Source: Candidatus Aminicenantes bacterium (GTDB taxonomy: Bacteria > Acidobacteriota > Aminicenantia > Aminicenantales > JAFGBC01). From it: a DNA stretch of 64,000 nucleotides. The stretch lies in contig OY969696.1 in the NCBI GenBank assembly GCA_963702005.1, positions 3,872,001 through 3,936,000 of the forward strand, written 5' to 3'. The position numbers and the translations under genes were made by a program. The notes below the pieces were generated by a model, which was given only the letters and a program-made list of their open reading frames with translations, did no database searches and had not been told where the DNA came from. The stretch's first letter is position 1, and every line of letters begins with the position of its first letter. This document shows, one piece after another, positions 7,165 through 58,141 of this stretch.

Positions 7165-7168
7165 AAAT

Positions 7169-7252: not shown

Positions 7253-7346
7253 TCTGGGACGGATTGACAGTCTAGCGGGGCTGTAATATACATCGTTAGG
7301 GACTCGAACGTGAATTTATGCCCCGCCTTCACCAAGGAGGACAATA

Positions 7347-16252: not shown

Positions 16253-16436
16253 CCCTCCTCCTTTCCGGCCCGAACGGCGGGCCGTGGCAGAGCGCGGCCC
16301 TATTAAATCACACCGCTCGGGTCCTGAACAAGAAAAGATATTTTTTGGGAAGGACTATTTAATCAGGATGATCTCGGTCTGGCGGCCGTCGAGCCAGGAG
16401 ACCCCGCGCCGGAAGGGCGCGGACTGATACCTGGTC

Positions 16437-16465
16437 AAAAGCGACAAAGTGCAGGTTTGATCCCG
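16437..16465. repeat. Half copy of REP-like family A
   Basis: aaaagcgacaaagtgcaggtttgatcccg matches the right arm of the copies at 19562, 24076 and 40652. Confidence 0.65.
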
Positions 16466-16467
16466 GT

Positions 16468-42170: not shown

Positions 42171-43714
42171 GCGCCCTCCTTCATCTTATACAGGCCGAAC
42201 GCGGAGAGGGTCGGACTCGTCCGCGAGCCCTCGATAACCAGACGAATGGACTTCACCGTCAGGGCGGGGAAACGAAGCAGCCGCTTGTATCCGATCGTCG
42301 TTCCGCGCGCGAATTCCAGCCAGCCTTGCTTGGTCCCGGCCTCGAGCCGGAAGGATTCAACTCGCTGGCCCGTCGCGATGTGCTCCTGGAGGAGCGCGAC
42401 GTCGAAGGTCACCGGACCGCCCCAAGTGAACTCGATCGTGGCCGATTCGATCCCGTCCTCAGTCGTCCAATAGGTCTCGGAGCGGCCGTCGAGGACCGCT
42501 CCGCCCGGATGACCGCTCTTTGACGCCGATGATTTCGCCGTCGCGCCCGCCGCCAGGTTCGTCCGGAACGTCCCGTCCAGGATCGCCCGCATCCCCCTCA
42601 GGCTAGCTACGTCGTTTTCATGGATAAGGCCGCTCCGGTCGGGGGGAACGTTGAGGAGGAGGACGCCGTTCCGTCCGACCGAGCTGAAGTAAATATCGAC
42701 GAGCGTTTCCGGAGTTTTGATCTTGGCGTCCTCGGCCGCATGATAGAACCAACCGGGGCGGATCGAGACGTCGATCTCGGCCGGATACCAGAGGAGGGCT
42801 TGGGCCCCCCTAAGCTTTTCGCGGCTTCCGAGGTCCGGGCTCATAAAGTCCTGGGGAAGATAAGCGGCGTCCACGGGGTAGGGTCCCGGCCGGATCTTGG
42901 TCAAATCGATGACGGGCGCGGACACAGGGATGACGCTCCACTCGGTCTCCCGGCCATATCCCGACTCGGTGCCGACCCAGCGGAGGTCCGGGGCCATCCC
43001 GAAAATGACGGCTTTCGGCTGAAGCTCCCTGATGACGGCGTAGTAGGACGGCCAGTCGTAGACCTGGCGCTTGCCGTTGGGGCCTTCGCCGCAGGCGCCG
43101 TCGAACCAGACTTCTGTCACTTCGCCGTAACCGGTCAGGAGCTCGCGGAGCTGACGGCGGAAGAACTCGTTGTAACGGGGAGAGTCGCCGTAACTCGGCT
43201 CATGCCGGTCCCAGGGCGAAAGATAAACGCCGAACTTGAGTCCCGCCTCGCGGCAGGCCCGCGCGATTTCGCCGACGACATCGCCCTTCCCGTCGCGCCA
43301 GGGGCTGGCCTTGACGCTGTGCTCGGTCTGCGCGGTCGGCCACAGGCAGAAGCCGTCGTGGTGCTTGGCCGTGATGATGAGCTGGCGCATCCCGGCCTCC
43401 TTGAGAACCTGCACCCACTGCCGGGCGTCGAAGGCCGTCGGGTTGAAAAGCGCCGGGCTCTCGGTCCCTTTGCCCCACTCCTGATTCATGAAGGTATTCA
43501 TGCCGAAATGGGCGAAGGCGATGAACTCGAGCTCCTGCCAGGCGAGCTGCCTCTCCGCCGGAACGACGTTGGCCGCCTTGCGGACGATCGCCTCGAGCGA
43601 TTCGCCGGGCTCGACGACGGCGATATTCCGGCCGTCCCGGTCCGGGACCGCCGAAGCTCCGAATACGGCGAAGAAGACGATGATCGATATCAGGGCGCCA
43701 TTGCATTTGGGCAC
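42167..43714 (-). CDS. Alpha-L-fucosidase (GH29) with C-terminal F5/8-type domain
   Basis: HFGMNTF, TAKHHDGFCLWP, YLSPWD, VWFDGA, DVSIRPGWFYH, SVGRNG.LLLN. Confidence 0.93.
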   Translation of the reverse strand: MPKCNGALISIIVFFAVFGASAVPDRDGRNIAVVEPGESLEAIVRKAANVVPAERQLAWQELEFIAFAHFGMNTFMNQEWGKGTESPALFNPTAFDARQWVQVLKEAGMRQLIITAKHHDGFCLWPTAQTEHSVKASPWRDGKGDVVGEIARACREAGLKFGVYLSPWDRHEPSYGDSPRYNEFFRRQLRELLTGYGEVTEVWFDGACGEGPNGKRQVYDWPSYYAVIRELQPKAVIFGMAPDLRWVGTESGYGRETEWSVIPVSAPVIDLTKIRPGPYPVDAAYLPQDFMSPDLGSREKLRGAQALLWYPAEIDVSIRPGWFYHAAEDAKIKTPETLVDIYFSSVGRNGVLLLNVPPDRSGLIHENDVASLRGMRAILDGTFRTNLAAGATAKSSASKSGHPGGAVLDGRSETYWTTEDGIESATIEFTWGGPVTFDVALLQEHIATGQRVESFRLEAGTKQGWLEFARGTTIGYKRLLRFPALTVKSIRLVIEGSRTSPTLSAFGLYKMKEGA

Positions 43715-43807: not shown

Positions 43808-45169
43808 TCAGACCAAACCCTGCTCCAGCATGGCCCTGGCAACCTTGAGGAAACCGCCTATATTGGCGCCATTGACATAATTTCCCGGGGTTCCGTATTG
43901 GTTGGCTGCTTCTACACAGGTTTTATGGATGCTCTTCATGATCTGGTGCAGGCGCTTGTCCACTTCCTCCCTCGACCAGCTCATCCTCATGCTGTTCTGG
44001 GACATTTCAAGACCCGAGGTAGACACGCCGCCGGCATTCGCCGCCTTTCCTGGGCCGAACAGGATTTTGGCATCAACAAATACCTCAATGCCTTCGGCCG
44101 TGGTCGGCATGTTCGCGCCCTCGGCGACTACATAGACTCCATTCTTGACCAGGTTTTTGGCGTCTTTGGCGTTGATCTCGTTCTGGGTGGCGCTTGGGAA
44201 GGCGCAATCCGCTTTATGGTTCCAGAGAGGATTAGTGTCCATATCGGGCGTCAGCGGCGTATAGGTCACGCCTTTGAACTTATCGGCATAATCCTTGATC
44301 CGGCCCCGGCGAACGTTCTTCAGGTCCATAATAAAATCCAGCTTCTTCGAATCAATGCCCGCGGGGTCATAAATATAGCCGTTGGAATCGGATAGCGTCA
44401 CCGCCTTGCCCCCGAGCTGGTTGATCTTCTCCACCGTGTACTGAGCCACATTACCGCTTCCCGAGACGAGGCAGCTCTTCCCTTCGAGGGTTTGATTTCT
44501 GGTCCCGAGCATTTCCGCGGCAAAATACACGGCCCCATACCCCGTTGCTTCCGGCCGGATGAGCGAGCCGCCCCAATCGAGTCCTTTGCCCGTCAGAACC
44601 CCGGTGACTTCATTCCGCAATTTTCTATATTGGCCGTAAAGGAAGCCGATCTCACGTCCGCCCACGCCGATATCGCCGGCGGGCACATCGGTATCAGGAC
44701 CGATGTGCCGGAAGAGCTCACTCATGAAGCTCTGGCAAAGGCGCATGACTTCGTTATCGCTCTTTCCCTTTGCGTCAAAATCACAACCGCCCTTGCCGCC
44801 GCCCATGGGCAGCGTGGTCAAGGAATTCTTAAACACCTGTTCAAAAGCAAGGAACTTCAGGATGCCCAAGTTGACGGTGGGATGAAAGCGCAGGCCGCCT
44901 TTATAGGGTCCGATCGCGCTGTTCATCTGGATCCTGTAGCCGCGATTGACGTGAATCTCCCCCGCGTCATCCATCCAGGCAACGCGGAACATGAGGACCC
45001 GCTCCGGCTCCGCGATCCGCTCGAAAATCTTGGCTTTTAGGTACTCGGGATGGCGTTCCAGAACCAAGGAGACGGAGCTGGCAACTTCATAAACGGCTTG
45101 ATGGAACTCGGGTTGCGCGGGGTTCTTGGCCTTGATTTCATCCATGAAATCTTTGACATAATTATTCAT
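43808..45169 (-). CDS. gdhA: NADP-specific glutamate dehydrogenase
   Basis: GPYKGGLRFH, EQVFKNSLT, MGGGKGG, DVPAGDIGVG, RPEATGYG, GSGNVA, KAANAGGV. Confidence 0.95.
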   Translation of the reverse strand: MNNYVKDFMDEIKAKNPAQPEFHQAVYEVASSVSLVLERHPEYLKAKIFERIAEPERVLMFRVAWMDDAGEIHVNRGYRIQMNSAIGPYKGGLRFHPTVNLGILKFLAFEQVFKNSLTTLPMGGGKGGCDFDAKGKSDNEVMRLCQSFMSELFRHIGPDTDVPAGDIGVGGREIGFLYGQYRKLRNEVTGVLTGKGLDWGGSLIRPEATGYGAVYFAAEMLGTRNQTLEGKSCLVSGSGNVAQYTVEKINQLGGKAVTLSDSNGYIYDPAGIDSKKLDFIMDLKNVRRGRIKDYADKFKGVTYTPLTPDMDTNPLWNHKADCAFPSATQNEINAKDAKNLVKNGVYVVAEGANMPTTAEGIEVFVDAKILFGPGKAANAGGVSTSGLEMSQNSMRMSWSREEVDKRLHQIMKSIHKTCVEAANQYGTPGNYVNGANIGGFLKVARAMLEQGLV

Positions 45170-45374
45170 ATATGCTCCTTCGCAAAAAAACTTTCGGAGA
45201 TTATACTGTATAAATCTCCTTCATTTTAATAAATCAGAAATTTTATGGATTTATTTGGATAATATTAGGATTTGAATAAAAATATCGGCTTCTTTCCGGA
45301 CACAAACACTCCTTGACTTTTAAGGAAGCAAGAATTATTTTTGATTTAAGAACATATGAAAAAGGGATAAAACA
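45170..45374. promoter_or_regulatory. AT-rich divergent promoter region between the two GDH genes
   Basis: 205-bp strongly AT-rich gap between divergent start codons. Confidence 0.55.
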
Positions 45375-46661
45375 GTGGGCGACAGATCTTATAACACCTT
45401 CCTGATAGCTCAGGCTCAATTCGATAAGACGGCGGAATGGCTCGATCTTGACCCGCCGACACGTGAACTCCTGCGTTTGCCGATGAAAGAATATCAATTC
45501 CTGATACCTCTCCAGATGGATGACGGGAGGGTCCAGATATTCAGAGGTTTCCGGGTTGTCCATAACGACGCCCGAGGACCCGGTAAGGGGGGAATCCGGT
45601 TTCATCCCTACGAGACCATCGATACCATCCGGGCCCTGGCGATGTGGATGACATGGAAATGTGCTCTGATGAATATCCCTCTGGGCGGCAGCAGCGGCGG
45701 CATCGTCTGCGATCCCCATTTCCTAAGCCTCCGAGAACAGGAGCGGCTCTGCCGAAGCTGGATCCGAAAGCTCGCCAGGGATTTGGGACCTCAAGTCGAT
45801 GTCCCGGCTCCTGACATCATGGCCTATACTCAGCACATGCTTTGGATGCTCGACGAATACGAAACGATCCGGGGTGAGAAACTCCCCGGTTTCATAACCG
45901 GAAAACCCGTGGGAATGGGCGGCTCTCTGGGCAGGATAGAGGCGACAGGCTTCGGCCTTGTCTTTGCTCTGCGCGAGGCCTTGAAGGAGCTGAACATCCA
46001 GCCTGACGACACCACCGCGAGTATCCAGGGCTTCGGCAACGTGGCCCAGCATGCCAGCCGTCTTTTTGAACAGATCGGCGGAAAAGTGATTTGTATCGCC
46101 AGCTGGAATAATAAGGACGGAACCTCCTATTCTTACAAAAAAGAATCGGGAATAAGCCTCGAGGCCCTGGCCGGCATCACGGACCGCTTCGGGGATATCG
46201 ATAAAGAGAAAGCGGCGAAAATGGGCTGTGAGGTTCTGCCCGGAGAGGCCTGGCTGGCTCAGGAGGCCGATATCCTGATTCCAGCCGCGGTTGAGAATCA
46301 AATTACGGCCGAAAATGTGACGGCGATTCGCCCGCGCGTCAAAATTATCGCCGAGGGAGCGAACGGCCCGACCACGACCGAGGCCGATGATATGATCGCC
46401 GATCGAGGAATATTCGTTATCCCCGACATTCTCGCCAACGCCGGAGGCGTCACCTGCAGCTACTTTGAGCAGGTCCAGAGCAATATGAATTATTATTGGG
46501 AAAAGGATGAAGTCCTCGGCAAGCTGGATGTCAAGATGACTTCGGCCTTCAATTCTGTTCTGGAGTTCGCCAAGAAAAAAAAGCTTTCGATGAGGGGGGC
46601 GGCTTTTGCTATCGCGGTCGCCCGGGTGGCTCAAGCTTGCAAGGACCGAGGCTGGATCTAG
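45375..46661 (+). CDS. Glu/Leu/Phe/Val dehydrogenase-family protein lacking the catalytic Lys (GGSSGG)
   Basis: GPGKGGIRFH, MTWKCA, DVPAPD, ITGKP, GFGNV, EGANGP, PDILANAGGV; GGGKGG replaced by GGSSGG. Confidence 0.88.
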   Translation: MGDRSYNTFLIAQAQFDKTAEWLDLDPPTRELLRLPMKEYQFLIPLQMDDGRVQIFRGFRVVHNDARGPGKGGIRFHPYETIDTIRALAMWMTWKCALMNIPLGGSSGGIVCDPHFLSLREQERLCRSWIRKLARDLGPQVDVPAPDIMAYTQHMLWMLDEYETIRGEKLPGFITGKPVGMGGSLGRIEATGFGLVFALREALKELNIQPDDTTASIQGFGNVAQHASRLFEQIGGKVICIASWNNKDGTSYSYKKESGISLEALAGITDRFGDIDKEKAAKMGCEVLPGEAWLAQEADILIPAAVENQITAENVTAIRPRVKIIAEGANGPTTTEADDMIADRGIFVIPDILANAGGVTCSYFEQVQSNMNYYWEKDEVLGKLDVKMTSAFNSVLEFAKKKKLSMRGAAFAIAVARVAQACKDRGWI

Positions 46662-46718
46662 TTTCCGCAGCTCCTCTCGGCTGGGACAGCGAGGCCGCTT
46701 CCGTTATGACTAAAATCG

Positions 46719-48476
46719 ATGCCTGAGTCTTGGACAAAATCGCTCTCCCTCCGCATCGCACCCTTCGACCGTCATTTTTTCACCGGCAAGGAAAGGTTCA
46801 CGGCCATCGGCCGCGGTGCCCTGGGAGGCAAAGCCCACGGATTGGCCCGGATAGCAAACATCCTCGAGGAAAAGCTGGCTCCCTCATTCCGACCCGACAT
46901 CGACATCACAATCCCGATCTTAACCGTGATCACAACGGAATTCTTCGATCTTTTCATGAAGCAGAACAACCTTCAAGACGTTGCTTTTTCCAGCCTCCGC
47001 GATGATCAAATTACCGCGACGTTCCAGCAGGCGGAGCTGCCGGCCCAGCTCGTCGGGGATCTGCGCGCTCTCATCGCCCGGGTCATCACGCCTTTGGCCA
47101 TTCGTTCTTCCAGCATTCTGGAAGACGCCATGTTCGAGCCCTTCGCCAGCGTCTATTCCACAAAAATGATCCCCAATAACCAACCGGATACCGACAGCCG
47201 GTTCAGGAGACTGGTCGAGGCGGTTAAATTTGTCTATGCCTCGACTTTCTTCAAAGATGCAAAAAATTACATTCAAGCGACAAGGCACACAACGGCCGAT
47301 GAGAAAATGGCGGTTATTATTCAGGAAGTCGTCGGCGTCCGGCACGGCCCGCGTTTCTATCCTCACATCTCGGGGGTTGCCCGTTCCTATAATTTTTATC
47401 CCATTGGACACGCCAAGCCCGCCGACGGCGTCGTCGACCTGGCGCTCGGCCTGGGGAAGACGATCGTCGATGACGGCATCGCCTGGTCTTATTCGCCGGC
47501 CTTCCCGCAGGCCAATCCGCCTTACATGACACTGGGCGACCTGTTGAACCAAGCCCAGCACGAATTCTGGGCCGTCAATATGGGCTCGCCTCCCGAGTAC
47601 AACCCCATCAAAGAGACGGAATACCTGATGAAATTCAGCCTGGAGGATGCCGAGGAAGATGGAAACCTTCGCTTTCTCGCCTCCACCTACAGGGCTCAAG
47701 ACGACAAGATTGTCTACGGCATCGCGGAGAAAGGTCCCCGGATTATCGACTTCGCACCGATCTTAAAATTCGATTTACTGCCCCTCAACAGAATGCTCAA
47801 ATGCCTTCTCAAGATCTGCCAGGAAGAGTTGGAAAGAATGGTAGAGGTCGAGTTCGCCCTGACCCTGGATGATCGCCAAGGCAGGCCGGCCCGATTTGGT
47901 TTCCTTCAAGTGAGGCCCATGGTCGTCTCGGAAGAAAAAGCGGAGCTTAGGCCGGCGGATTTGAGGGGAGAAAACGTGCTGGTGGCCACGGAGTCGGCGC
48001 TGGGGAATGGAATCGTCGGAAACATTCGCGACGTCATTTACATCAAGCCGGAGAAATTCAACGTTCAACATTCGGAAACCGTCGCGGCTGAGCTTGAATT
48101 GCTGAATCATCATTTGTTGCAACAAGGCCTTCCCTATCTTCTTATCGGCTTTGGCCGTTGGGGGACGTCCGACCCGCAGGCCGGCATCCCGGTTAAGTTC
48201 GGCCAAATCTGCGGCGCCAAAGTCATCGTCGAATCTGCCCTCCCCGAAGTGCCTTCCCTTCTCAGCCAGGGCTCTCATTTCTTCCACAACATCACCAGCT
48301 TCAAAGTCCTCTACCTGTCCGTCAGTCATTGGGACAAGGACAACATTGACTGGAGTTGGCTGAACAAACAGCAAGTCATCCAGGAAACAAAATTCGTGAG
48401 ACAGGTTAGACTTCCCTCCCCCCTGCATATTCAAGTCGACGGCCTGACCGGTCGTGGGGTGATCATCCATGAATGA
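46719..48476 (+). CDS. PEP/pyruvate-binding (PPDK-N, ATP-grasp) domain protein without the C-terminal PEP-utilising barrel
   Basis: LGGKAHGL, AIRSSSILED, IQEVVG, SGVARS, LGLGKT, LQVRP, GRWG, SQGSHFF. Confidence 0.85.
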   Translation: MPESWTKSLSLRIAPFDRHFFTGKERFTAIGRGALGGKAHGLARIANILEEKLAPSFRPDIDITIPILTVITTEFFDLFMKQNNLQDVAFSSLRDDQITATFQQAELPAQLVGDLRALIARVITPLAIRSSSILEDAMFEPFASVYSTKMIPNNQPDTDSRFRRLVEAVKFVYASTFFKDAKNYIQATRHTTADEKMAVIIQEVVGVRHGPRFYPHISGVARSYNFYPIGHAKPADGVVDLALGLGKTIVDDGIAWSYSPAFPQANPPYMTLGDLLNQAQHEFWAVNMGSPPEYNPIKETEYLMKFSLEDAEEDGNLRFLASTYRAQDDKIVYGIAEKGPRIIDFAPILKFDLLPLNRMLKCLLKICQEELERMVEVEFALTLDDRQGRPARFGFLQVRPMVVSEEKAELRPADLRGENVLVATESALGNGIVGNIRDVIYIKPEKFNVQHSETVAAELELLNHHLLQQGLPYLLIGFGRWGTSDPQAGIPVKFGQICGAKVIVESALPEVPSLLSQGSHFFHNITSFKVLYLSVSHWDKDNIDWSWLNKQQVIQETKFVRQVRLPSPLHIQVDGLTGRGVIIHE

Positions 48477-51400
48477 GAACTCAAAGAATACCGATTCCGT
48501 GATCTGGTTTTTATCCGAGCGGGCCAAGGAATTGAATTGCCTCTACAAGATCGAAGAGCTTCTCAACAAGCCGGATGCCGATCTGGACGATATCTGCCGA
48601 GGCGTTATCGAAGCCATTCCGCCGGGCTGGCAGTATCCGGACATCTGTGTCGCCAAAATCAGCCTCGAGGGACACGCGGCTCAATCCCCGAATTTCAAAG
48701 AGACCGCTTGGGTTCAGAATGCCGATATCAAAGTCCAGGACAAACACATAGGGAGGTTGAGCATTTACTATATCGAAGAGATGCCTCACGCCGCTGACGG
48801 GCCTTTCTTGAAAGAGGAGACAAAGCTCCTCGGAACGATCGTGGACCGACTGGGCCACTACATCCTTTATACACGGATGAAACAGGCCTACCAGGAGTAC
48901 CAGACGGCCCGCCGGGGCGTTTCAGCGGATCGAGCGGACGAATGGCGTGTGGCCCTGAATTTTTTACGTCAGACCAACAAAAACCTCTTCCTGAATATAT
49001 CCCGCCGCATGCTCAATTTTCTCAGCTGGGGAGGCATCCAGGAAGCCGAAAAGCTTCTCCTCAAAACACTGGCAGGAAAGAAAGCCGGCGAGAGCTATTC
49101 GGAAGAAGAGAATTTCCCCGATCAAGTCAGGCCGCAGTCCTTCGATGAAAAAATCAGCGAAGAAACGTTCAACCTTGCCGCCCGGCATCTCAGCACCGGC
49201 CAAATCCTGGCCAACATCCACAAATGGATCCAAGAGGACCGGCTGAGCTTTTTAGTGGAGGTCACAAACAGAAATCTCTCCCTGGCTCAGGTCGTGGACG
49301 CCATCCGTCGCTACCACCATATCGCCGCCGAGGGCATCGCACTCCCTCCGGAAAGTCGAAGGGGCGTTCTTGTCTCCCTGATCCGACGTTTTCTCTCCGA
49401 ACAGCCGGAATTCATCACCACGGCCATCAAGAATATTGAAATCGACGACTTCTATGAGATCCTGGATCACATTATTTTTTCGCCGGAGAGCCAGGGAAGG
49501 TTGGGAGGAAAAAGCACCGGGCTTTTTTTGGCCAAGCATATCATCGAGAAATCGGCCGATTCCTTGAGCCATTTCAGCCCGATCAAGGTGCCGAAAACAT
49601 GGTATATCTCCTCGGAGGGCCTGCTGAGCTTTCTCTCCTATAATAATCTCAACGAGGTTGTTGAGCAAAAGTACAAAGATATCAACCAAGTTCGGCTGGA
49701 GTATCCTCATATCGTTCAGACATTTAAAAATTCTCAGTTCCCCACGCATATCGTCCAGGGACTCTCCATGGTTCTCGACGACTTCAAGGACCAGCCCATC
49801 ATCGTCCGCAGCTCCAGTCTGCTGGAAGATCGGATGGGATCTTCGTTTTCCGGAAAGTACAAGAGCCTGTTCTTGGCCAACCAAGGCAGCAAAGGGGAGC
49901 GTCTTGAAGCCCTCAAAGACGCCATCGCTGAAATCTATGCCTCCACCTATGGCCCCGATCCTATCAGCTACCGGTCGGAGCGGAATCTTCTTGATTTCGC
50001 GGAAGAGATGGGCATCATGATCCAAGAAGTCGTGGGTACGCGGGTCGGGGACTATTTTTTCCCCTCTTTTGCCGGAGTGGCTTTGAGCCGCAACGAGTTC
50101 CGCTGGTCGCCATGGATCAAACGCGAAGACGGCCTGCTGCGATTGGTCCCCGGGTTGGGGACAAGGGCGGTGGACAGAACCAGCGATGATTATTCTGTCA
50201 TGATCGCCCCGGGACAGGTCGGGCTCCGCGTTAATGTCAGCGCCGACGAGGTCATCCGCTACTCGCCCAAAAAAATGGACGTCATCAACTTGAAAACGAA
50301 CGGCTTCGAAACCATCGAAGCCAAAGACCTGCTCAGGCGATATGGCCATCAACTCCCCGCCGCCGATAAAATCGTCTCCCTCTATGACGGTCAGTGCTTG
50401 CGAAAACCGTTGGGCCGGACGATCGATTGGGAGAAGGACGATCTTGTCATCACCTTTGAAGGACTCATCGACAGCACCCCCTTCATTTCCCAACTCCGAG
50501 AGGTCATGCGGATCCTAAAAGAAAAACTCCAGTTTCCCGTGGACATCGAATTCGCTTCCGATGGAAAGAGTTTTTATCTTCTCCAATGCAGGATGCAAAG
50601 CTACCTGGAAGGCAGCGAGCCCGCTTATATCCCCAAGAACCTGCCCAAGGAAAAAATCGTGTTCCTGGCCAATCGTTTTATCTCCAACGGGCGCATTCCG
50701 GATATTACTCATATCGTCTATGTCGATCCGCAAAGCTACGATGAGCTTCCCAATCGCGAGATGCTTCTGGCCGTCGGCCGCGCCGTGGGAAAGCTGAACA
50801 AGCTCTTGCCGCGGCGCCGATTCATCCTGATGGGGCCCGGTCGTTGGGGAAGCCGGGGAGATATCAAGCTTGGAATCAAGGCGTCCTACTCCGATATCTC
50901 AAACACGGCGGTCCTGATCGAGATCGCCCGAAAGAAAGGGCATTATCTTCCCGACCTCTCTTTCGGCACCCACTTTTTCCAGGATCTTGTCGAAGGAGAA
51001 ATTCGCTATCTGCCGCTCTACCCCGATGAAAAGGGCTCTATCCTTAAGGAAGACTTTTTCAAAAAGTCAGCCAATATCCTTCCCCAAATCTTGCCCGAAT
51101 TTGCCGATCTTGCCGATACCATCAAGGTCATAGATATTCCCGGGAGCACGGATGGAATGGCCCTCCGCATTCTGATGAATGCCGACCTGGATGAAGCCGT
51201 GGGATTTCTTGTCAACCCGGAGGTCGAACCCCTCTCTCCGCTTCCCGGGAGAGAAAAAGAAAAGGGCAAGCCGGAGAACCATTGGGCCTGGCGGCTCGAG
51301 ATGGCTGAACATATCGCTTCGCAGCTTGACGCCGGGCGTTTCGGCGTTAAGGCCCTCTACATAATCGGCAGCGCCAAGAATGCCACGGCCGGCCCGCAAA

Positions 51401-51651
51401 GCGACATCGACCTCTTGATTCATTTTCAGGGAACGAAGTCCCAGCGCCGGGACCTGGTCTCCTGGCTGGAGGGGTGGAGCCTCTGCTTAGACGAGATGAA
51501 TTTCCAAAAAACGGGATATAAGAGCGGGGGACTTCTCGATATCCATTTCGTCACCGATGCGGATGTCGCTAAAAAGACGAGTCATGCGGCCAAGATCGGC
51601 GCGGTCACGGACGCGGCCCGACTCCTCCCGCTCAAAGAATTGGTCAAATAA
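48469..51651 (+). CDS. PPDK-N domain protein with N-terminal GAF-like sensor region and C-terminal nucleotidyltransferase domain
   Basis: ERAKELNCLY...IPPGWQYP; LGGKS, VRSSSLLED, FSGKY, IQEVVG, GLGTRAV, GRWGS, SFGTHFF; C-terminal GSAKNATAGPQSDIDL. Confidence 0.85.
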   Translation: MNENSKNTDSVIWFLSERAKELNCLYKIEELLNKPDADLDDICRGVIEAIPPGWQYPDICVAKISLEGHAAQSPNFKETAWVQNADIKVQDKHIGRLSIYYIEEMPHAADGPFLKEETKLLGTIVDRLGHYILYTRMKQAYQEYQTARRGVSADRADEWRVALNFLRQTNKNLFLNISRRMLNFLSWGGIQEAEKLLLKTLAGKKAGESYSEEENFPDQVRPQSFDEKISEETFNLAARHLSTGQILANIHKWIQEDRLSFLVEVTNRNLSLAQVVDAIRRYHHIAAEGIALPPESRRGVLVSLIRRFLSEQPEFITTAIKNIEIDDFYEILDHIIFSPESQGRLGGKSTGLFLAKHIIEKSADSLSHFSPIKVPKTWYISSEGLLSFLSYNNLNEVVEQKYKDINQVRLEYPHIVQTFKNSQFPTHIVQGLSMVLDDFKDQPIIVRSSSLLEDRMGSSFSGKYKSLFLANQGSKGERLEALKDAIAEIYASTYGPDPISYRSERNLLDFAEEMGIMIQEVVGTRVGDYFFPSFAGVALSRNEFRWSPWIKREDGLLRLVPGLGTRAVDRTSDDYSVMIAPGQVGLRVNVSADEVIRYSPKKMDVINLKTNGFETIEAKDLLRRYGHQLPAADKIVSLYDGQCLRKPLGRTIDWEKDDLVITFEGLIDSTPFISQLREVMRILKEKLQFPVDIEFASDGKSFYLLQCRMQSYLEGSEPAYIPKNLPKEKIVFLANRFISNGRIPDITHIVYVDPQSYDELPNREMLLAVGRAVGKLNKLLPRRRFILMGPGRWGSRGDIKLGIKASYSDISNTAVLIEIARKKGHYLPDLSFGTHFFQDLVEGEIRYLPLYPDEKGSILKEDFFKKSANILPQILPEFADLADTIKVIDIPGSTDGMALRILMNADLDEAVGFLVNPEVEPLSPLPGREKEKGKPENHWAWRLEMAEHIASQLDAGRFGVKALYIIGSAKNATAGPQSDIDLLIHFQGTKSQRRDLVSWLEGWSLCLDEMNFQKTGYKSGGLLDIHFVTDADVAKKTSHAAKIGAVTDAARLLPLKELVK

Positions 51652-52507
51652 GCTCTTTGCTGGCGGCGTCTAATTGCTCCAGCTGAAAACGAATCAGAGC
51701 AAGCTCCGGCCCGTCGTGCGCGGCCGAGAAGCAGTGTGTCCGGCCGATGCGATCCCTCCAGGAAGCGGAGAGTCTCGCCGCCTCATGGACATGCCCGTGA
51801 AGCGTCAGAAACGGCTGTCGAGCCTCGATGAAGCGGCGGATAGCGATGCTGCCCAGATGATGATCGAGGGGGACGTAATCGATCATCTGTCCTTTGAGGC
51901 AAGAAAGGTCGAGCTTCGTTTGATAGGGAGGCGAATGGAAAAGAAAGACGGCCTTGGTCAGGTCTTCATTCTTCGTCAACCGTTCAAGGTCCTCCTTGAT
52001 GGTTGAATATTTGCTCTCCCGCTCGGAAACCGGAACGGACCGCAGTCCCTCTTCGGGGGATATTGTTCCAGGATCGATGTAGCGAGAGACGTCATAGCGC
52101 TCCCAGTCTTTCAGTCGGAAAGGAGTCGGTGGAACATAAGCATAGCCGTAGAGGGGAAAACCGTCGAAAACCACCTTGCGGTTATGAATATACTCCCAGA
52201 CGCCCTGGACGGCCGCATCCAGGACCGCGGCTTCTTCAAATCGGCCGTCGTCATTGCCCATGACCAGAAAGATCCTGGGATAGTCCGTCAGGAGCTCCTG
52301 ACGCAAAGCAAGGAAATTCTTCACAAGAAAGCCGTTGAAAAAATCTTGCTGGCTAAGACTCAAAGAGTCGCGAGCGGGCCGAGCCAAGGGCAAAAAATCG
52401 CCGCCGATGAAGACGGCCTTCGGCTTCTCAAGGGAAATAGCCCTAAAAAGCTTCTGATAGCGGCGCAGATCGCCGTGGAGATCGGAGACGAAAAAGCAAT
52501 TCCCCAC
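51644..52507 (-). CDS. Metallophosphoesterase (calcineurin-like, Icc-related)
   Basis: SDLHG, GGD, GNDD, HSPP, HGHVHE. Confidence 0.88.
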   Translation of the reverse strand: MGNCFFVSDLHGDLRRYQKLFRAISLEKPKAVFIGGDFLPLARPARDSLSLSQQDFFNGFLVKNFLALRQELLTDYPRIFLVMGNDDGRFEEAAVLDAAVQGVWEYIHNRKVVFDGFPLYGYAYVPPTPFRLKDWERYDVSRYIDPGTISPEEGLRSVPVSERESKYSTIKEDLERLTKNEDLTKAVFLFHSPPYQTKLDLSCLKGQMIDYVPLDHHLGSIAIRRFIEARQPFLTLHGHVHEAARLSASWRDRIGRTHCFSAAHDGPELALIRFQLEQLDAASKELI

Positions 52508-52575
52508 GAAAAAATTATAAGCCAAAATTACTAAAAGTGACAATCGGCACGGATGAACCCGGCACCCGACCTCTG

Positions 52576-53301
52576 TCAAGCGTCTTCTTCATCCCCGAAC
52601 TTATAGCCGACGCCTCGAACGGTTTGGATATATTTCTTGGCCCCGCTCAGCTTTTTTCGAAGACCGGTCATATGATAATCGACGACGCGCTCCGTGATGG
52701 GATAGCCGTCCTCGCGGACATGATCAAGGATGAATGATCGGGTGAAAACCTGATTGGGCTTCCCGGCCATCAGGGCGAGAATCTCGAATTCTGTCTTGGA
52801 GAGATGGACCTTTTTGCCGTTGACGCGGACCTCGTAGGCTCCTCGATCGATGATCATATTGCCTATTTCCAGCCTTGTTTTTTCTTTTTCCGTCGATTTC
52901 TTCATCCTTCGCAGCAGAGCCTGGATGCGGGCCAGCAGGATTTCCGGCTCAAAAGGCTTGGTGATGTAGTCGTCGGCGAACTCCCTTAAGCCGGCGACAA
53001 CGTCTTCGACCTGCTTCTTGGCTGTGACCATGATGATCAAGGCATTGGATGTCCTAGAGTCCTTTTTCAGGATGCCGCAAACTTTCAACCCATCAATCCC
53101 GGGAAGGATAAGGTCCAGGAGAATAAGATCCGGCCTCTCTCGTCTGGCCAGCTGTAGGGCTTCCTCGCCGCTCTGGGCGCCGAGAACTTGGTATCCTTCT
53201 TTCCAGAGGATAAAAGAGAGGCTATTTTGAAGGTTGACATCGTCCTCAACGCACAATATCTTGATCTTGGCGCCAGGCTGAACTTCGCTTGGAGACTTCA
53301 T
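52576..53301 (-). CDS. OmpR/PhoB-family response regulator (no cognate canonical kinase in window)
   Basis: VEDD, LLDLILPG, VTA, DDYITKPF, EFEIL, TVRGVGY. Confidence 0.93.
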   Translation of the reverse strand: MKSPSEVQPGAKIKILCVEDDVNLQNSLSFILWKEGYQVLGAQSGEEALQLARRERPDLILLDLILPGIDGLKVCGILKKDSRTSNALIIMVTAKKQVEDVVAGLREFADDYITKPFEPEILLARIQALLRRMKKSTEKEKTRLEIGNMIIDRGAYEVRVNGKKVHLSKTEFEILALMAGKPNQVFTRSFILDHVREDGYPITERVVDYHMTGLRKKLSGAKKYIQTVRGVGYKFGDEEDA

Positions 53302-53435
53302 TCTATTACTGCCGTTCTTCAAGAAACAAAGAATATTGTAATTAAATCCAAACAAAAAGCAAATAAATCCATAACAATTCGCGCCGTCTACGATAAAAAA
53401 CATCGGAGAAAAAAATAGAGCTAGGCGGGAACGGG

Positions 53436-54881
53436 TCAGCGGCTTCGGGCTCTTTCCTGATAGACTTTGATCCATTTTTCGACGATTTGAATCAGCGTCC
53501 CTCTCAACTCGGCAGCGCTTCCGTGGATGGGGCGGAGCTCCTCGGCAAGTTCCGGATATTCTTTTCGATCCAGCCAGGACGAAATGATATCGTTATCCGA
53601 ATAGGGCTGAATGACGCCCGCGTCCAGAGTTTTAAGACACATCCAGAGCTCGCGCAGGTTGAATATCTTGTGTCCGTCGATGATCAGCGGGATCCGCTTG
53701 ATCCGGGCCATCTCCCTCCGGAAATCTCTCTTCAACAGGGTGATGAGCTGCCGGCCCCGGCTTCTTCTCGGGCGCAGGCGGTCGCCGAGTTCCTGAAAAC
53801 TGTGCATATAAAGCCACGTGGAGAATTTATCTTTTTCCCCGTAGCTTTCCAAAATATCCCTGAGCCGTCGGCCCGGCGGGCAGTCTTTCTCGGCTTCCGA
53901 CAGGATCTGGCAAATTCCGTGAATGTCTTTAGCCCGATGCAATTCCCGCCCGTCTTCGTCATAGATGAGAAAATCTCCCAGCCCCGTGAAATTGAGAATA
54001 TAATCCTTAAGCTTCTCCAGGCTTCCCGGATCGCCCTTGGGAAGAATAAAGCCGAGGTCGCTTAATTCATGAGCCTCTTTCGCCTTAGAGGCGATAATCA
54101 CGGGAATCCGAGGATAGGCGCTTTTCACCAGGCGGATCAGGTCGCGGCCGGCATCCGTCTGGAGTTCGTTGTGTTTGGGAAAATAGATATCCGCGATCAG
54201 ACAAACGACGTCATCGCCGTGCCCGCTTGATAAAGACCCTTTGTCCTTGATCTGAGATTCATCCTCAACGCCAAAAATGAATCGAAGACTCTCCTCGTAG
54301 GTTCGAGTGATCATCACATCCGCACGTTGGCCGATAATACTATAAAGGACGGGGAGGAATTGAGAGAACCAGCGCGGCTCATCATCGACGATATGAAAAA
54401 TAAACCGCCGGGCGTTAGAATATTTCTTGATATTGAGCAAATCCTCCGCCGCCCGGACGACGGAGGCAAGAATTCTCTCGGGCGCGCATTCGTTCCGGTT
54501 GACGGCAAAGATGAGGTCGGCCTTGGTCACATAGGGATACCTCTGGGCGGCAGCTTGAGGGGGGGAACACTGGATGAAAACTTGGGAGGAGAGAAGAACA
54601 AGAACAGCGTCTGGGTTGTGAACGCGGATTGTATTCGTATCGAGAATCGCCAGGGCGGTATCATCAAACAGAAATACACAGGCCTTTTCATAAGCGCGGC
54701 TCATAACCGACGGCGGATCATGGAGAACTTCCGTCTCAAGCCAGGGCATATTTTTCCCCAAAATTTCCAGGCCCTCGCGGATCCGTGAATCAGCGGCAAA
54801 AATGACCGCCTTTTTCATCCTGACCGGGTTGATAATCCGAGGAATGAAGGGATGCTCTCTGTTCCCGCTTCGGCTATTCAT
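53436..54881 (-). CDS. Receiver-domain-containing hypothetical protein with duplicated C-terminal helical unit
   Basis: FHIVDDEP...LIADIYFP...IIASK...LPKG receiver pattern; GLGDF; FSTWL / ISSWL repeats. Confidence 0.65.
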   Translation of the reverse strand: MNSRSGNREHPFIPRIINPVRMKKAVIFAADSRIREGLEILGKNMPWLETEVLHDPPSVMSRAYEKACVFLFDDTALAILDTNTIRVHNPDAVLVLLSSQVFIQCSPPQAAAQRYPYVTKADLIFAVNRNECAPERILASVVRAAEDLLNIKKYSNARRFIFHIVDDEPRWFSQFLPVLYSIIGQRADVMITRTYEESLRFIFGVEDESQIKDKGSLSSGHGDDVVCLIADIYFPKHNELQTDAGRDLIRLVKSAYPRIPVIIASKAKEAHELSDLGFILPKGDPGSLEKLKDYILNFTGLGDFLIYDEDGRELHRAKDIHGICQILSEAEKDCPPGRRLRDILESYGEKDKFSTWLYMHSFQELGDRLRPRRSRGRQLITLLKRDFRREMARIKRIPLIIDGHKIFNLRELWMCLKTLDAGVIQPYSDNDIISSWLDRKEYPELAEELRPIHGSAAELRGTLIQIVEKWIKVYQERARSR

Positions 54882-56541
54882 TTTCTAAAACGACTTCGCA
54901 GCGTTGTTTGAGACAGTCCGCATAGACCGTCACCGGCCCCGGGAAAGACAAGACACCGAGGACGCTATCGGGCTGGGAACAGGAAAAAAGCCAGGGGTCG
55001 AAGGTATCCTGCATGGGCATGATATAGCCATAAATGATGTTGTTGCCCGCCAGGTTCGTCAGAAAATGCGTTCCCTGGGTTCCATACATCCTGGTCTGCA
55101 GTCTTTTTTGATCCTCATTAAAGCCGCCTTGAATCATATACAGAAAATGACTGCCGTAGACTCCTCCGGTTAAGCTCTCCTCTTCCGGCAAAGGTTCCGA
55201 CCGTCCCTCCACATCCACTCCGTATTCGAAAATAGCCGCCGCCTGATCCACGTCTTTATACTCAACGAAGATGCCCCAGTCTTTGTTTCGGCTTCCGAGA
55301 CGGCCCGGCACAATCAAGATATATTTCTCGTTCCGGCTCGCCATGTCTTGGTTGATCTGGGCGATTTTCTTGCGGACGACGGGCTGGAACTCTTTCTTAT
55401 AAATAAACGGAGATACGACGAGCGCATGTTTGATGTTCCTTTTAATCCCATGTCCCTGGGCATTATTGATGGCGAGATAGGTATGAAGGACGGACGGGGG
55501 GATCTGGATGGAGTCCAACTTCAATTCAGGCAGCTGAGTCAACTGGACAATGTGAAAAGTCCCGTCTCCTTTGTCCTTCCTGGAAAAATCGAGGTTGAAG
55601 ACAAATTCGATCAGAAACTGAGAAGAGATACGAGAGGCGATGATCTCCATGATTTCCACGAGGCCTGTCTTGAATCCGAAATGGTTATTCTGGATGAGAT
55701 CTTCTATGGTGATGAGGTTGTTCCGGATTCCCAACAGCTTGATCTTATGGTAATTGGCGAACCGGACATGAAGCTTCTTCATGGTTTCCAGTTCTTCGCC
55801 CTTGAGCTCCCTATTTTTGGTCATGTCCAGAGCATAAAAAAATTGCTGGCCGCTTCCAATTCGCAAGAGACGGAGGGGGATAGGATTGGAGATCGTGGCC
55901 ATGGAGATAACGGGAAAATCGTCCAAGACGGTGGCATAGCCGTGTCCGAAAGCGATCCGGGCAAAGCCTTCGCTGGGATTCTGGTTCTTGAGGGCGTGCG
56001 GGAAGAAGGAAACGGCGACCCCGGAAATATAAGGATAATAAACGGGGCCGGCGTAGGTGTCATCGAATATTCCCGGAATGGGATTGATGACGATGGCCAT
56101 TTTCTCTCGGCTCGAGGCGGGTTGTTTCCTGAGAAAATCATTGTAGATATGGGTCACGGCTTGGATGACCTGAGAAAGTCTCACTTCAGGATCAGGGTGA
56201 TTGTTGGGCAGCATGAAGGACGCGTTCTCCCCGGCATGAATGGAACCTCCGGCCTGCGCCGTCGGACCCGCCTCATTTGTCGCGGAAGAGCGAATTCCCA
56301 AAGGAACGTCCGTCAATTCTCCAAGAATCGAGAGCACGACATTTTGTTCCTCGTCCCCAAATCTTCCGTCATTGGCGAGGAAACTATCAAAGAAGGAAGT
56401 GGTCAGGATATAGGTTTTCAACTTGCTGACCTTGGGAAGGGAAAGTTGGTTGATCTTAACGAGTCCGGCTCCCTTCCCGCCCAGAGAACCCGTCCCGTAG
56501 ATTTTGACAGCCTCGGCTATTTGGGCCATGGGAATATTCAT
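54874..56541 (-). CDS. Divergent PPDK-N (ATP-grasp) domain protein
   Basis: LGGKGAGL, GIRSSA, YPYISGVA, FGHG, IEFV, PGRLGS, TQGTHFL. Confidence 0.72.
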   Translation of the reverse strand: MNIPMAQIAEAVKIYGTGSLGGKGAGLVKINQLSLPKVSKLKTYILTTSFFDSFLANDGRFGDEEQNVVLSILGELTDVPLGIRSSATNEAGPTAQAGGSIHAGENASFMLPNNHPDPEVRLSQVIQAVTHIYNDFLRKQPASSREKMAIVINPIPGIFDDTYAGPVYYPYISGVAVSFFPHALKNQNPSEGFARIAFGHGYATVLDDFPVISMATISNPIPLRLLRIGSGQQFFYALDMTKNRELKGEELETMKKLHVRFANYHKIKLLGIRNNLITIEDLIQNNHFGFKTGLVEIMEIIASRISSQFLIEFVFNLDFSRKDKGDGTFHIVQLTQLPELKLDSIQIPPSVLHTYLAINNAQGHGIKRNIKHALVVSPFIYKKEFQPVVRKKIAQINQDMASRNEKYILIVPGRLGSRNKDWGIFVEYKDVDQAAAIFEYGVDVEGRSEPLPEEESLTGGVYGSHFLYMIQGGFNEDQKRLQTRMYGTQGTHFLTNLAGNNIIYGYIMPMQDTFDPWLFSCSQPDSVLGVLSFPGPVTVYADCLKQRCEVVLENE

Positions 56542-56659: not shown

Positions 56660-56712
56660 ATGCCGCTAGGAAGGGCGGCGGAATAGCGGTCGGGTGCAGC
56701 GCTTTGTTAGGT
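56660..56712 (-). other. Truncated integron attC site (R'' and L'' half only)
   Basis: Minus strand ACCTAAC AAAGCGCTGCACCCGACCGCTA...TAGCGG overlapping the gene stop; no matching L' or GTTRRRY. Confidence 0.6.
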
Positions 56713-57684
56713 TTGGCTATTAGGTTCCAACGTTATTACAACATTTCCCGTTTTTTGACCTGTTTCGACATACCTAGTGGCCTGGATAATTTGTTCGAGT
56801 GGATAGCGTCTATCGATGACCGCTTTATACTTTCCCGCCTCGATAATCTCTTTGAAAAAGAGCACGTTTTCTTTGTTTTCCTTCGGAATCGCAATCATGA
56901 CTTTTTTACTGCCGATTTTTGCAGTCAACACTAGAAAGAAAAGGTTCTGCCATAAAAATCCCAGATCAGTTTCAAGATAGGCTCCGCCTTGCTTTAGAGA
57001 GTTTTTACAGCGTAAAAACGAATGCTTGCCGACTGCGTCAAAAATAACGTCATAGGTCAGACCATTCTTGGTAAAATCATCTTTTGTGTAATCAATGACT
57101 CGATCCGCTCCCAAAGATTTCACTGTTTCTACATTCTTGGTATTGCACACCGCCGTAACATCCGCTCCGAAGTACTTGGCAAGCTGTACCCCTGCAGTAC
57201 CTATAGACCCGGATGCTCCATAGATCAGGATTTTTTTTCCGCTCTGAATATTGACTTTTTTCAGGCAACTCAATGCAAGCGTTGCCCCATCGCAGACAGC
57301 AGCAGCTTCCTCGTAGGTCATATTGACCGGTTTTGTTGCGATAGCCCCTTCTTCCGGCAGGCATAAATACTCGGCATGAGCGCCAAAACTGTTGCCGGTC
57401 AACCCAAATACCTGATCGCCCTTTTTGAATGATTTGACATCCTTGCCGACCGCTTCGATTTCCCCGGCGAACTCGCTCCCCAGTATCGTTCTTCTCGGTC
57501 TGATGAGGCCGCTAAAAAATCTCACAATAAATGGCCTGGGCTTTCGAAATCCGCAGTCCGTTCGGTTGACCGTTGTCGCATGTATTTTTATCAGCAATTC
57601 ATTTTCATTGGGAGTCGGTTTTGCTATATCTTTGAGTTGAAGAACCTCCGGCGGTCCGTATCTTGTGTAGACAATCGCTTTCAT
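56707..57684 (-). CDS. NAD(P)-dependent MDR-family oxidoreductase (quinone oxidoreductase-like)
   Basis: [38 protein letters not shown]. Confidence 0.9.
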
Positions 57685-57709
57685 GAGTATTTCTCCCAAG
57701 TTGCTTTAA

Positions 57710-58090
57710 TTATGATTGCTTTTTCTTTCCCTTCTCGATAACTTCCTTAACCCTAAATTTTGTAATCCTAGAAATGAGGCCATAAGGTATTGGTTTTTCA
57801 GGAGGAAACCTTATCGTTCCTTTCGATGTTTCATATGCTTCCAATTCCCTTTTAAATTTCTCTACGCCGCTAGACGTTGGAAAAAAGCTTATATGTTTGG
57901 AAAAAGCGGCAAAATGGACTAAATGGCCGCCGATCTTGAACGTTGGTATTTGGTAGCTTATCGCTTCTGTTGCGCCGGGTGCCGCTCTTTTTATCGTCGC
58001 TCTTATCTTTTGCAGGATCTCTTGAACATCATGCGGAAAGCCCGCGATGTATTCATCTATATTCTTGGGTGTTGATTGATCATTTTTCAT
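57710..58090 (-). CDS. DUF1801 / YdhG-like protein
   Basis: IDEYIA, APGATEAISYQIPTF, HISFFP, SKGTIRFP. Confidence 0.85.
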   Translation of the reverse strand: MKNDQSTPKNIDEYIAGFPHDVQEILQKIRATIKRAAPGATEAISYQIPTFKIGGHLVHFAAFSKHISFFPTSSGVEKFKRELEAYETSKGTIRFPPEKPIPYGLISRITKFRVKEVIEKGKKKQS

Positions 58091-58141
58091 GCTTCCTCTC
58101 CGTTGTATCCTGAATAGCGGAGCTGTGATCGAGACCGTGTC

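Follow-up and report, generated by a model that had tools for sequence, protein, structure and literature searches.

Several metabolic enzymes are switched at the protein level: AceK acts on isocitrate dehydrogenase, PknG and GarA/OdhI act on glutamate dehydrogenase (GDH), glutamate synthase (GOGAT) and 2-oxoglutarate dehydrogenase (ODH), and GlnE and GlnD act on glutamine synthetase. GDH sits where carbon and nitrogen metabolism meet, and for most bacteria we know of no dedicated protein-level regulator of this enzyme. VadK, described in 2026, is to our knowledge the one experimental precedent so far for a regulatory kinase derived from pyruvate phosphate dikinase (PPDK). As the passages of its report describe it, this truncated PPDK of Mycobacterium tuberculosis (Rv1127c) autophosphorylates on His422 and binds and tunes the enzymes of the methylcitrate cycle (EMBO Rep 2026, PMC13400623). 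A 'REC with pyruvate phosphate dikinase' architecture, which joins a receiver (REC) domain to such an enzyme, was catalogued by Galperin et al. in 2018 ('Bacteroides-like', Heimdallarchaeota); the passages that list it give neither a function nor a GDH linkage (PMC5847659). Here we describe a block of eight genes at positions 43808..56541 of a 64,000-nucleotide stretch (hereafter the window) from a Candidatus Aminicenantes bacterium (assembly GCA_963702005.1, contig OY969696.1, positions 3,872,001 to 3,936,000). The block encodes two GDH-family proteins (GdhA and GDHps), three PPDK-N/ATP-grasp proteins (PK585, PK1060 and PK555, collectively PKs), a REC-domain protein (REC481), an OmpR-type regulator and a metallophosphoesterase.

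Our preferred reading, to which we assign a probability of roughly 45%, is that two copies of a widespread module, a GDH plus a signal-gated half-dikinase, have merged in this block, and that its VadK-like PKs control GDH. By analogy, the block would then belong to a kind of system that is already known, the PPDK-derived regulatory kinases.

Analysis of open reading frames (ORFs) and Pfam/NCBIfam families recovered all eight genes at the limits given by the original prediction, and genome-wide searches covered the window's own genome, a single 4.31-Mb contig. Two convergent strings and a single divergent gene make up the layout. The + strand string starts with GDHps (45375-46661) and continues with PK585 (46719-48476) and PK1060 (48469-51651), with a gap of 57 nt between the first two and an overlap of 8 nt between the last two. 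The - strand string comprises PK555 (56541-54874), REC481 (54881-53436), the OmpR-type regulator (likely 53304-52576) and the metallophosphoesterase (52579-51644); PK555 and REC481 overlap by 8 nt, the regulator and the metallophosphoesterase by 4 nt. The remaining gene, gdhA (45169-43808, - strand), is divergent from GDHps, with 205 nt between them. As predicted, the block is less GC-rich than the DNA to its left (0.529 versus 0.632). The predicted gene contents were correct, except that the nucleotidyltransferase is the C-terminus of PK1060 and not a gene of its own; PK555 and REC481, both sub-threshold in Pfam, were established by other means.

The three PKs share an ATP-grasp domain and a C-terminal domain of ~170 residues. 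According to its PPDK_N match, a structural model and alignments, PK585 (46719..48476, + strand) consists of an ATP-grasp domain (~34-412) and a C-terminal His domain (~413-585) carrying GRWGT479-483 and H520. Pfam and alignments divide PK1060 (48469..51651, + strand) into a sensor region (1-340), an ATP-grasp domain (344-721), a His domain (~728-905, with H835) and a nucleotidyltransferase (~936-1060). PK555 (54874..56541, - strand) has a divergent ATP-grasp domain and a His domain with GRLGS413-417, H492 and a 29-residue insert that contains H465. PPDK_N (PF01326, cut-off 27) was matched at 125.3 bits in PK585 and 183.4 bits in PK1060, as anticipated for PPDK-N/ATP-grasp proteins. PK555 fell short of the cut-off, with a sub-threshold N-terminal match only (E = 0.0017, 18.1 bits), but is homologous to PK585: the two share 21-25% identity by tblastn, with most of the length covered in several loci, and hhalign related their C-domains with 98% probability (E = 7e-14).

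Twenty-three C-domains from the three PK classes were aligned and revealed nine invariant positions (G, R, G, G, E, G, H, F and Y), namely G-R-x-G of 'GRWGS', one Gly, one Glu, G-x-H-F of 'G[ST]HF' and one Tyr. The single invariant His corresponds to H520 in PK585, H835 in PK1060 and H492 in PK555. An AlphaFold model of PK585 (pLDDT 81, pTM 0.84) found its best structural matches in rifampin phosphotransferase (RPH; 5hv1, Foldseek E = 3e-13), HpeI (9goj), phosphoenolpyruvate (PEP) synthase (PEPS; 2ols) and PPDK. VIA comparison aligned the model with 2ols over 361 residues (Z 24.8, rmsd 4.7, chain 8-466), with 1dik over 348 (Z 18.3, rmsd 5.7, chain 7-510) and with 5hv3 over 360 (Z 24.8, rmsd 5.0, chain 6-866). 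Matches confined to the ATP-grasp domain (5hv6_A, 1vbg) covered 226-276 residues, to which the swivel-containing chains add 70-120. The 2ols, 1dik and 5hv3 alignments extend to the end of the PK585 model and to the end of the swivel His domain, which in RPH spans residues 767-865 with catalytic His825, as given in the passages describing that enzyme (PMC4844700). H520 is placed by the model at the start of a helix that follows a loop of low confidence. The model thus suggests that the PK C-terminal domain is a probable swivel phospho-His domain.

The PKs have the same ATP-grasp fold as PEPS, PPDK, RPH and HpeHI (2ols, 1dik, 5hv1/5hv3 and 9goj; VIA Z 17-25), and in the predicted structure their C-domain overlays the swivel His-domain region. 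They differ from these enzymes in having no third, substrate-binding domain, and PF00391 and PF02896 go undetected in them. No PEP-utilizers_C domain (PF02896) was found by Pfam in any of the three, and a complete PPDK is encoded elsewhere in the genome (L106; PF02896, 274.6 bits), which together bear out the suggestion that the PKs are not metabolic PEP synthases. Across the genome, PF00391 matched only this true PPDK and one further place, a 634-aa open frame at 813052. Searched as a profile against sequences of solved structures, PK585 had a sole match, the ATP-grasp domain of RPH (E = 1e-4); a single-sequence search with PK585 retrieved nothing relevant, and the profiles of PK555, the PK1060 N-terminal region and REC481 retrieved nothing meaningful. 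PK585 has at least 7422 homologues at E <= 1e-5, and among the matches listed there are only close relatives, named hypothetical or PEP/pyruvate-binding; annotations used for the family are 'PEP/pyruvate-binding domain protein', 'PPDK AMP/ATP-binding domain' or hypothetical.

The closest functional counterpart is VadK, which, in the passages that describe it, likewise has an ATP-grasp and a His-bearing domain and no PEP/pyruvate TIM barrel (PMC13400623). The two nevertheless differ: the PK C-domain is unrecognisable as PEP-utilizers by sequence, orthology is not established, and the PKs are known here from genes alone. Moreover, the PKs carry or partner REC or other sensor modules and are linked to GDH, not to the methylcitrate cycle.

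The signal-gating part of the proposed module is most evident in REC481 (53436..54881, - strand), for which alignment, modelling and Foldseek delimit a degenerate REC (~24-154), an intact REC (~160-300) and a C-terminal helical domain (~300-481). REC481 has no Pfam match at E <= 10 and is missed by a whole-genome search with PF00072. Its model (pLDDT 73, pTM 0.43) resembles REC-REC proteins, with PleD (2wb4) matched at a Foldseek E of 4.8e-5 and 3mf4 and 3luf also retrieved. The receiver residues D166, D167, D231, S265 and K282 are invariant in 12 orthologs of 54-68% identity, and the [E/D]D, D, S, K set is kept in 22 of 23 fused or split relatives, the 23rd lying outside the alignment. The CheY-like REC-REC fold of the model and this conserved quintet uphold the predicted second receiver-domain protein, though without a Pfam match. 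The first receiver-like half looks degenerate in the model, and the C-terminal helical domain bears a faint, below-cut-off likeness to DUF5752 (E = 0.0049).

The C-domain family comprises 2121 representative clusters at E <= 1e-3. PPDK_N was present in all 25 long members scanned, together with a weak N-terminal Response_reg match in four, a weak DUF5752 match in three and NTP_transf_2 in four, while three proteins of 1484-1654 aa contain two fused PK units, one PK585-like and one PK1060-like. The REC481 profile matched the N-terminal 300 residues of fused PKs (P0142, 98.5% probability, E = 2.8e-15; P0200, 97%, E = 8e-11), and among 40 PKs sampled across the phylum we counted 22 REC481-like-plus-PK fusions and one split form. 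Because a REC481-like module is fused to the PK N-terminus in most relatives, PK555 and REC481 are, on comparative grounds, two pieces of what is commonly one protein. With their order of REC-REC-linker-ATP-grasp-His domain and their ~1000 aa, the fused proteins fit the 'REC + pyruvate phosphate dikinase' architecture as listed by Galperin et al. (PMC5847659), which in the block is split into two genes. With the receiver N-terminal to the PK, the fusions are arranged as response regulators usually are when the receiver controls an enzymatic output.

PK1060 appears to have a sensor of another kind. At another locus (L159), a canonical histidine kinase carries in its N-terminus two copies of the first ~135 aa of the PK1060 sensor region, at 38-39% identity; because the region is found also in a histidine kinase, the PK1060 N-terminus can be regarded as a sensory module.

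The linkage of PKs to GDH was surveyed in two ways. REC481 was present in 15 of 41 genomes of an order-level sample, the window's own included, and a scan with REC481, taking one genome per species, yielded 80 loci. In 78 of these, REC481 is immediately preceded by PK555; in the other two, the locus is cut by a contig end (L085) or has no PK555 (L093). GDHps, PK585 and PK1060 are also present in 25 of the 80, in at least five gene arrangements: 18 loci have the window type, and the others are represented by L049/L053/L098, by L054, by L052/L062 and by L069. Such rearrangement without loss speaks for selection on co-location. In loci with the PK555-REC481 pair only, a non-orthologous large NAD-GDH of ~955 aa adjoins it in five cases (L064, L071, L079, L084 and L087), and other neighbours are glutamate-synthase-like genes, AsnA, aminotransferases and amino-acid transporters; the glutamate-synthase-like neighbours include a GltS-like 525-aa protein with a NuoF/GltD fusion. 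A GDH-family ORF occurs in 34 of the 80 loci and a GDH or GltS-like gene in 36; for loci of at least 18 kb the latter figure is 25 of 37.

A second survey avoided the bias of selection by REC481. A C-domain profile search detected the domain in 100 of 201 sampled Acidobacteriota genomes, from which 40 genomes, with one PK gene each and up to 20 kb fetched, were chosen before their neighbours were seen. A GDH-family ORF was present in 34 of these 40 stretches, in 32 of them within ~210 nt of the PK ORF or overlapping it and in the remaining two at 1.4 kb (L137) and 0.7 kb (L151). The original prediction had called for a neighbourhood survey of linkage to gdh and receivers; with 78 of 80 pairs retained and 34 of 40 PKs accompanied by GDH, this linkage proved strongly conserved. 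A literature search, which extended to neither subscription journals nor supplements (for example Table S3 of PMC5847659), found no paper on PK function or on the GDH linkage.

Several of these loci have further features. A glutamate-synthase-like set lies a few kb from the PK555-REC481 pair in ten of them (L049, L053, L054, L071, L079, L087, L097, L098, L103 and L057) and consists of a 525-aa Glu_synthase-like protein, a ~1020-1090-aa NuoF/GltD fusion or ~630-680-aa NuoF-like protein, and a 2Fe-2S/4Fe-4S protein; at L062:11515-20208 a complete split GOGAT takes its place. Locus L159 (G059:C4:71732-91731) contains a GDH, a fused REC-PK, a second PK (940 aa), another GDH and two further GDH-like ORFs, as well as the histidine kinase mentioned above, whose N-terminus has the two PK1060 sensor-module copies and which is followed by a sigma-54 response regulator. 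Pkinase (Ser/Thr protein kinase) genes lie beside or near the pair at L027:6389-7765 and at L101:5454-7835 and 15419-17140, in a pattern inconsistent across loci. In L016/L092 (second copy in G016), L088, L101, L031 and L033, cluster genes were split into 2-3 tblastn pieces; these breaks, which include an apparently damaged second PK555-REC481 copy, may be frameshifts or assembly errors in long-read metagenome-assembled genomes (MAGs).

The two GDH-family proteins of the block differ at the catalytic site. GdhA (43808..45169, - strand; 453 aa) is an NADP-type enzyme with Pfam ELFV_dehydrog and ELFV_dehydrog_N domains; its NF006929 score (747.8 bits, equivalog cut-off 536) and an intact GGGKGG motif with K126 verify the predicted intact GDH. 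We take the Lys of the GG[GA]KGG motif to be catalytic, in line with work on the Clostridium symbiosum and E. coli enzymes. GDHps (45375..46661, + strand), of the ~420-aa 'archaeal/RocG-like' type, matches both ELFV domains (230.4 and 168.7 bits) and has S107 in a GGSSGG motif where GdhA has K126, and is thus the expected paralog without the catalytic Lys. Alignment shows two substrate-binding Lys residues and the dinucleotide domain to be retained. In 25 GDHps orthologs from composite clusters (overall identity 67-84%), the catalytic position is occupied by S (13), T (3), N (3), Y (2), H (2) or K (2), and is therefore non-Lys in 23.

The Lys is present in L057 and L064. PK-adjacent GDHs in the phylum sample keep it in 35 of 37 cases, the other two showing a Q and a motif not matched by the regular expression. 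The window's own genome holds a second GDH-PK locus (L105, C1:1124000-1134000), where a Lys-bearing GDHps-type GDH (1904-3190, + strand) is followed by a PK1060-like PK without a nucleotidyltransferase (~3235-6015, + strand) and then by a hybrid REC-PAS-PAS-HisKA_2-HATPase kinase (6032-7831, + strand). Because PK-adjacent GDHs elsewhere and the L105 enzyme keep the Lys, its loss is, by this comparison, a derived trait bound up with the merged cluster, which has an intact GdhA as well. To judge from these sequences, the GDH protein can evidently act as a partner without its chemistry; GDHps, still highly conserved despite the loss of the Lys, probably does so as a ligand sensor or as a docking subunit.

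We therefore picture the proposed control of GDH as follows. The ATP-grasp domain would load phosphate from ATP onto the invariant His, as in PPDK, RPH and VadK, and the phospho-His PK would act on a protein target, not on a metabolite. The most likely target would be the product of the neighbouring GDH gene, to which the PK would either transfer the phosphate or bind in a phosphorylation-dependent manner. REC481, a REC-REC protein, would gate PK555, with the signal presumably passing from receiver to kinase, and the N-terminal sensor region would gate PK1060, while the dead GDH of the PK585/PK1060 module could serve as ligand sensor or docking subunit. The orphan OmpR-type regulator may add transcriptional control of gdhA through a triple direct repeat. 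By analogy, such a scheme resembles AceK, PknG-GarA/OdhI and GlnE/GlnD, where a dedicated regulator stands beside or acts on a branch-point enzyme, although those protein families are unrelated to the PKs; the GarA targets GDH and GOGAT are also the enzymes found beside the PK555-REC481 pair.

Several observations weigh against this scheme. By sequence, the C-domain does not look like the domain it is proposed to be: PF00391 (PEP-utilizers) gave no Pfam match in the PKs at E <= 1, and when the C-domain was compared by hhalign with a profile built from 25 PPDK central domains, the probabilities were 1.2% and 0.4%, and 0.1% in global mode. The swivel assignment draws on one predicted model and on alignment ranges, and for every family member the reading as a whole draws on sequence comparison and predicted structure. 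The ATP-grasp domain of PK555 is divergent, with QxT where others have QxRP, and with RSSATNE. Linkage to glutamate metabolism is incomplete: 12 of the 37 long REC481 loci have neither GDH nor GltS-like genes nearby, and six of the 40 sampled PK stretches lack a GDH, two of these ending at contig ends. Finally, we infer GDH as the recipient of phosphate over a receiver or a small molecule, and the lack of a neighbouring histidine kinase fits at least as well with a PK that serves as the receivers' own kinase.

This last possibility, which we consider the best-placed alternative albeit clearly less probable than control of GDH by VadK-like PKs, would make the PKs non-canonical histidine autokinases feeding receiver Asp residues. 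Phosphate on PK555 His492 would pass to REC481 Asp231 and/or to the OmpR-type regulator and thence affect gdhA, with hybrid-kinase-like behaviour in the fusions. The invariance of one His across the PKs and the strict conservation of the receiver phospho-acceptor set are both in its favour. So is an operator-like repeat that links the regulator to gdhA. The regulator itself is an orphan response regulator of the OmpR/PhoB family with a receiver and a winged helix (52576..53304, - strand). Response_reg (93.3 bits) and Trans_reg_C (79.3 bits) establish the type that had been predicted; its best NCBIfam match is PhoB, at 206.8 bits and thus below the cut-off of 296. The ORF is open to 53475, but ortholog matches begin at query positions 29-70, and these together with the start of the receiver point to Met58 (53304) as the likely start. 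EDD, D121 (ORF numbering), T and K are readable in its receiver.

Canonical histidine kinases are scarce around these genes, which would be explained if the PKs served the orphan receivers. Neither HisKA nor HATPase_c was found in the block, as the original prediction had stated, nor anywhere in the window, and the nearest HATPase_c lies 82.6 kb from the regulator, whereas 28 of the genome's 37 receivers have a HATPase_c match within 5 kb. Elsewhere, canonical kinases accounted for none of 72 flanking ORFs in 18 loci, for one of 98 scanned ORFs in 23 loci (L044, 5.4 kb away; 98 of 111 candidates scanned) and for one of 75 scanned ORFs in the 40 phylum loci (L159, with its own sigma-54 regulator; 75 of 176 candidates, those within 1.6 kb). 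The block resembles a canonical two-component system in its intact OmpR-family regulator, its intact receiver in REC481 and an operator-like 11-bp direct repeat, and differs from one in that no HisKA/HATPase_c partner is nearby in the window or in 79 of the 81 related loci surveyed. Two types of DNA-binding regulator have, moreover, been recruited without a kinase, OmpR here and NtrC in a distant cluster variant of a Fibrobacter-labelled MAG (L102, 6728-8218 and 12306-15407), where an NtrC-type (sigma-54) regulator replaces the OmpR type. Downstream in that variant lie a 1033-aa PK and two unassigned proteins of 561 and 595 aa.

The repeat that ties the regulator to gdhA emerged from an alignment of 10 loci and a pattern search. 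Located at 45248..45273 (- strand), it is a triple direct repeat (AAATCC / TTATCC / AATC, period 11 bp) in the divergent region between gdhA and GDHps, ~80-105 nt upstream of gdhA in the window. Direct repeats with 11-bp spacing are typical of OmpR/PhoB sites. The pattern AAATCC-N5-TTATCC-N5-AATC occurs in the window as one exact and one near copy, against 0.12 expected, and searches of real sequence gave 27 matches versus two in a shuffled control. It precedes the gdhA match by 104-111 nt (142 nt in L088) in 16 of the 18 loci with both OmpR and GdhA genes, L040 and L060 being without it, and none of the 10 GdhA-bearing loci that lack an OmpR gene showed it ahead of gdhA. The near copy (53344..53369, + strand; one mismatch to the pattern) lies in inverse orientation 40 nt upstream of the regulator's likely start and is identical to the first at 26 of 33 bases, flanks included; a repeat at this second site occurs in the window only and, weakly, in L026 (three mismatches). 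The co-occurrence fits a predicted OmpR/PhoB-type site at which the regulator would bind, providing a direct transcriptional link to gdhA.

Other features argue against His-Asp transfer as the core function. The fusions have their receivers on the N-terminal side of the enzyme, as do the enzyme-output response regulators described in the relevant passages of Galperin et al. (PMC5847659). Many full clusters have no OmpR gene (L049, L052-L054, L062, L069 and L098), so that transcriptional output is not core, and orphan receivers can use unlinked kinases or small phosphodonors. Nor are we aware of any case in which a phospho-His of the PEP-utilizer type hands its phosphate to a receiver Asp, and the literature search listed none. 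A bolder version, which we hold to be somewhat more doubtful again, would have the PKs form a third kind of His-Asp kinase (H492 to D231 and the OmpR-type regulator), with a hexamer of the dead GDH as the glutamate/2-oxoglutarate/NAD(P)H sensor that sets PK585 and PK1060. The block would in that case be a self-contained phosphorelay for carbon and nitrogen that operates without HisKA/HATPase.

It is improbable, in our estimate, that the PKs are small-molecule dikinases, phosphorylating a metabolite of the glutamate/2-oxoglutarate node at a substrate site supplied by GDH or the dead GDH. Their closest solved structures are indeed small-molecule dikinases (RPH 5hv1, HpeI 9goj and PEPS 2ols), and split dikinases with separate substrate-binding subunits exist, as the passages on HpeHI report (PMC12167813). 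The dead GDH, which is operon-like with two PKs, also keeps its substrate-binding Lys residues and the dinucleotide fold. Against this, partners such as REC domains, PAS-kinase-type sensors and regulators typify signalling enzymes and not catabolic dikinases, and adjacent GDHs are normally catalytically equipped (35/37). The variable Lys replacements (S, T, N, Y and H) look like relaxed selection at one site and not like a new catalytic residue, and we know of no phosphorylated intermediate in GDH chemistry. Given this signalling context, a small-molecule dikinase is less likely than either His-Asp transfer or the VadK-like reading.

A slightly fainter prospect still is nucleotidylylation in the manner of GlnE/GlnD, in which the PK1060 nucleotidyltransferase would add AMP or UMP to GDH, GDHps or a PK, the metallophosphoesterase would remove it, and the ATP-grasp/His part would be accessory. 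NTP_transf_2 is matched at the PK1060 C-terminus with 23.8 bits (cut-off 21), or 25.4 bits on the isolated C-terminus, and a minimal nucleotidyltransferase motif of the Pol beta superfamily is readable as GS967-968 and D979-I-D981; a domain with GS...DxD recurs in P0124, P0127, P0148, P0185, L145 and L176. The metallophosphoesterase (51644..52579, - strand), a calcineurin-like protein (Metallophos 40.6 bits; motifs DxH, GD, GN, H and GHxH readable), adjoins the PK1060 3' end in all 26 loci in which PK1060 and its 3' flank are present. The nucleotidyltransferase is, however, found in only 4 of 25 scanned members and 2 of 40 phylum loci, and the second locus of this genome (L105) and L057 are without it. 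None of the 40 loci of the phylum sample has a metallophosphoesterase, its two nucleotidyltransferase-bearing PKs included, so that nucleotidylylation would be at most a lineage-added layer. A general pairing of metallophosphoesterase and nucleotidyltransferase, which we considered, is unsupported outside the composite cluster, and the predicted role of the phosphoesterase as eraser found no comparative support beyond this cluster type. Since many relatives do without the OmpR gene, the phosphoesterase and the nucleotidyltransferase, the comparison marks these three as lineage-specific additions and not as core.

That the genes are unrelated and merely adjacent is scarcely credible: the GC content of the block, below that of the left flank, could mark a mosaic insertion, but the linkage holds in different families, gene orders and non-orthologous GDH types, and gene fusions accompany it. 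As a rough estimate, if a ~4-Mb genome has 1-3 GDH genes, a GDH would be expected in ~1-2% of random 20-kb stretches.

The surroundings of the block and some discarded candidates can be described briefly. On the left (40818-43714), a URO-D-like gene and an alpha-L-fucosidase with an F5/8 type C domain, of 64% GC, are unrelated to the block and mark a compositional boundary. On the right (56707-59065) lie a zinc-type alcohol dehydrogenase, whose GC content of 0.448 is the region's lowest, a DUF1801 protein and a PALP enzyme; the neighbourhood of these genes to the cluster is not conserved in other loci. Two ORFs on the - strand, of 158 aa (45243-45719) and 303 aa (45723-46634), have no family match, overlap GDHps on the opposite strand and were judged spurious. 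A reading of the block as anti-phage defence was dropped, as PADLOC gave weak domain-level matches only (NTase-PDC-S09, phosphoesterase-PDC-S10 and receiver-PD-T4-6).

The presence of the PK family in 100 of 201 genomes, its position within ~210 nt of GDH in 32 of 40 sampled cases and its signalling domains point to an unrecognised ATP-dependent control of GDH. Current annotations of the family mislead metabolic reconstructions of uncultured lineages. If control of GDH by VadK-like PKs is correct, PPDK-derived regulatory kinases would be widespread and modular, gated by REC or other sensors in split or fused form, and able to recruit a dead-enzyme partner. Should either His-Asp transfer or phosphorylation of GDH prove true, for which we see a real chance, the mechanism would be categorically new.

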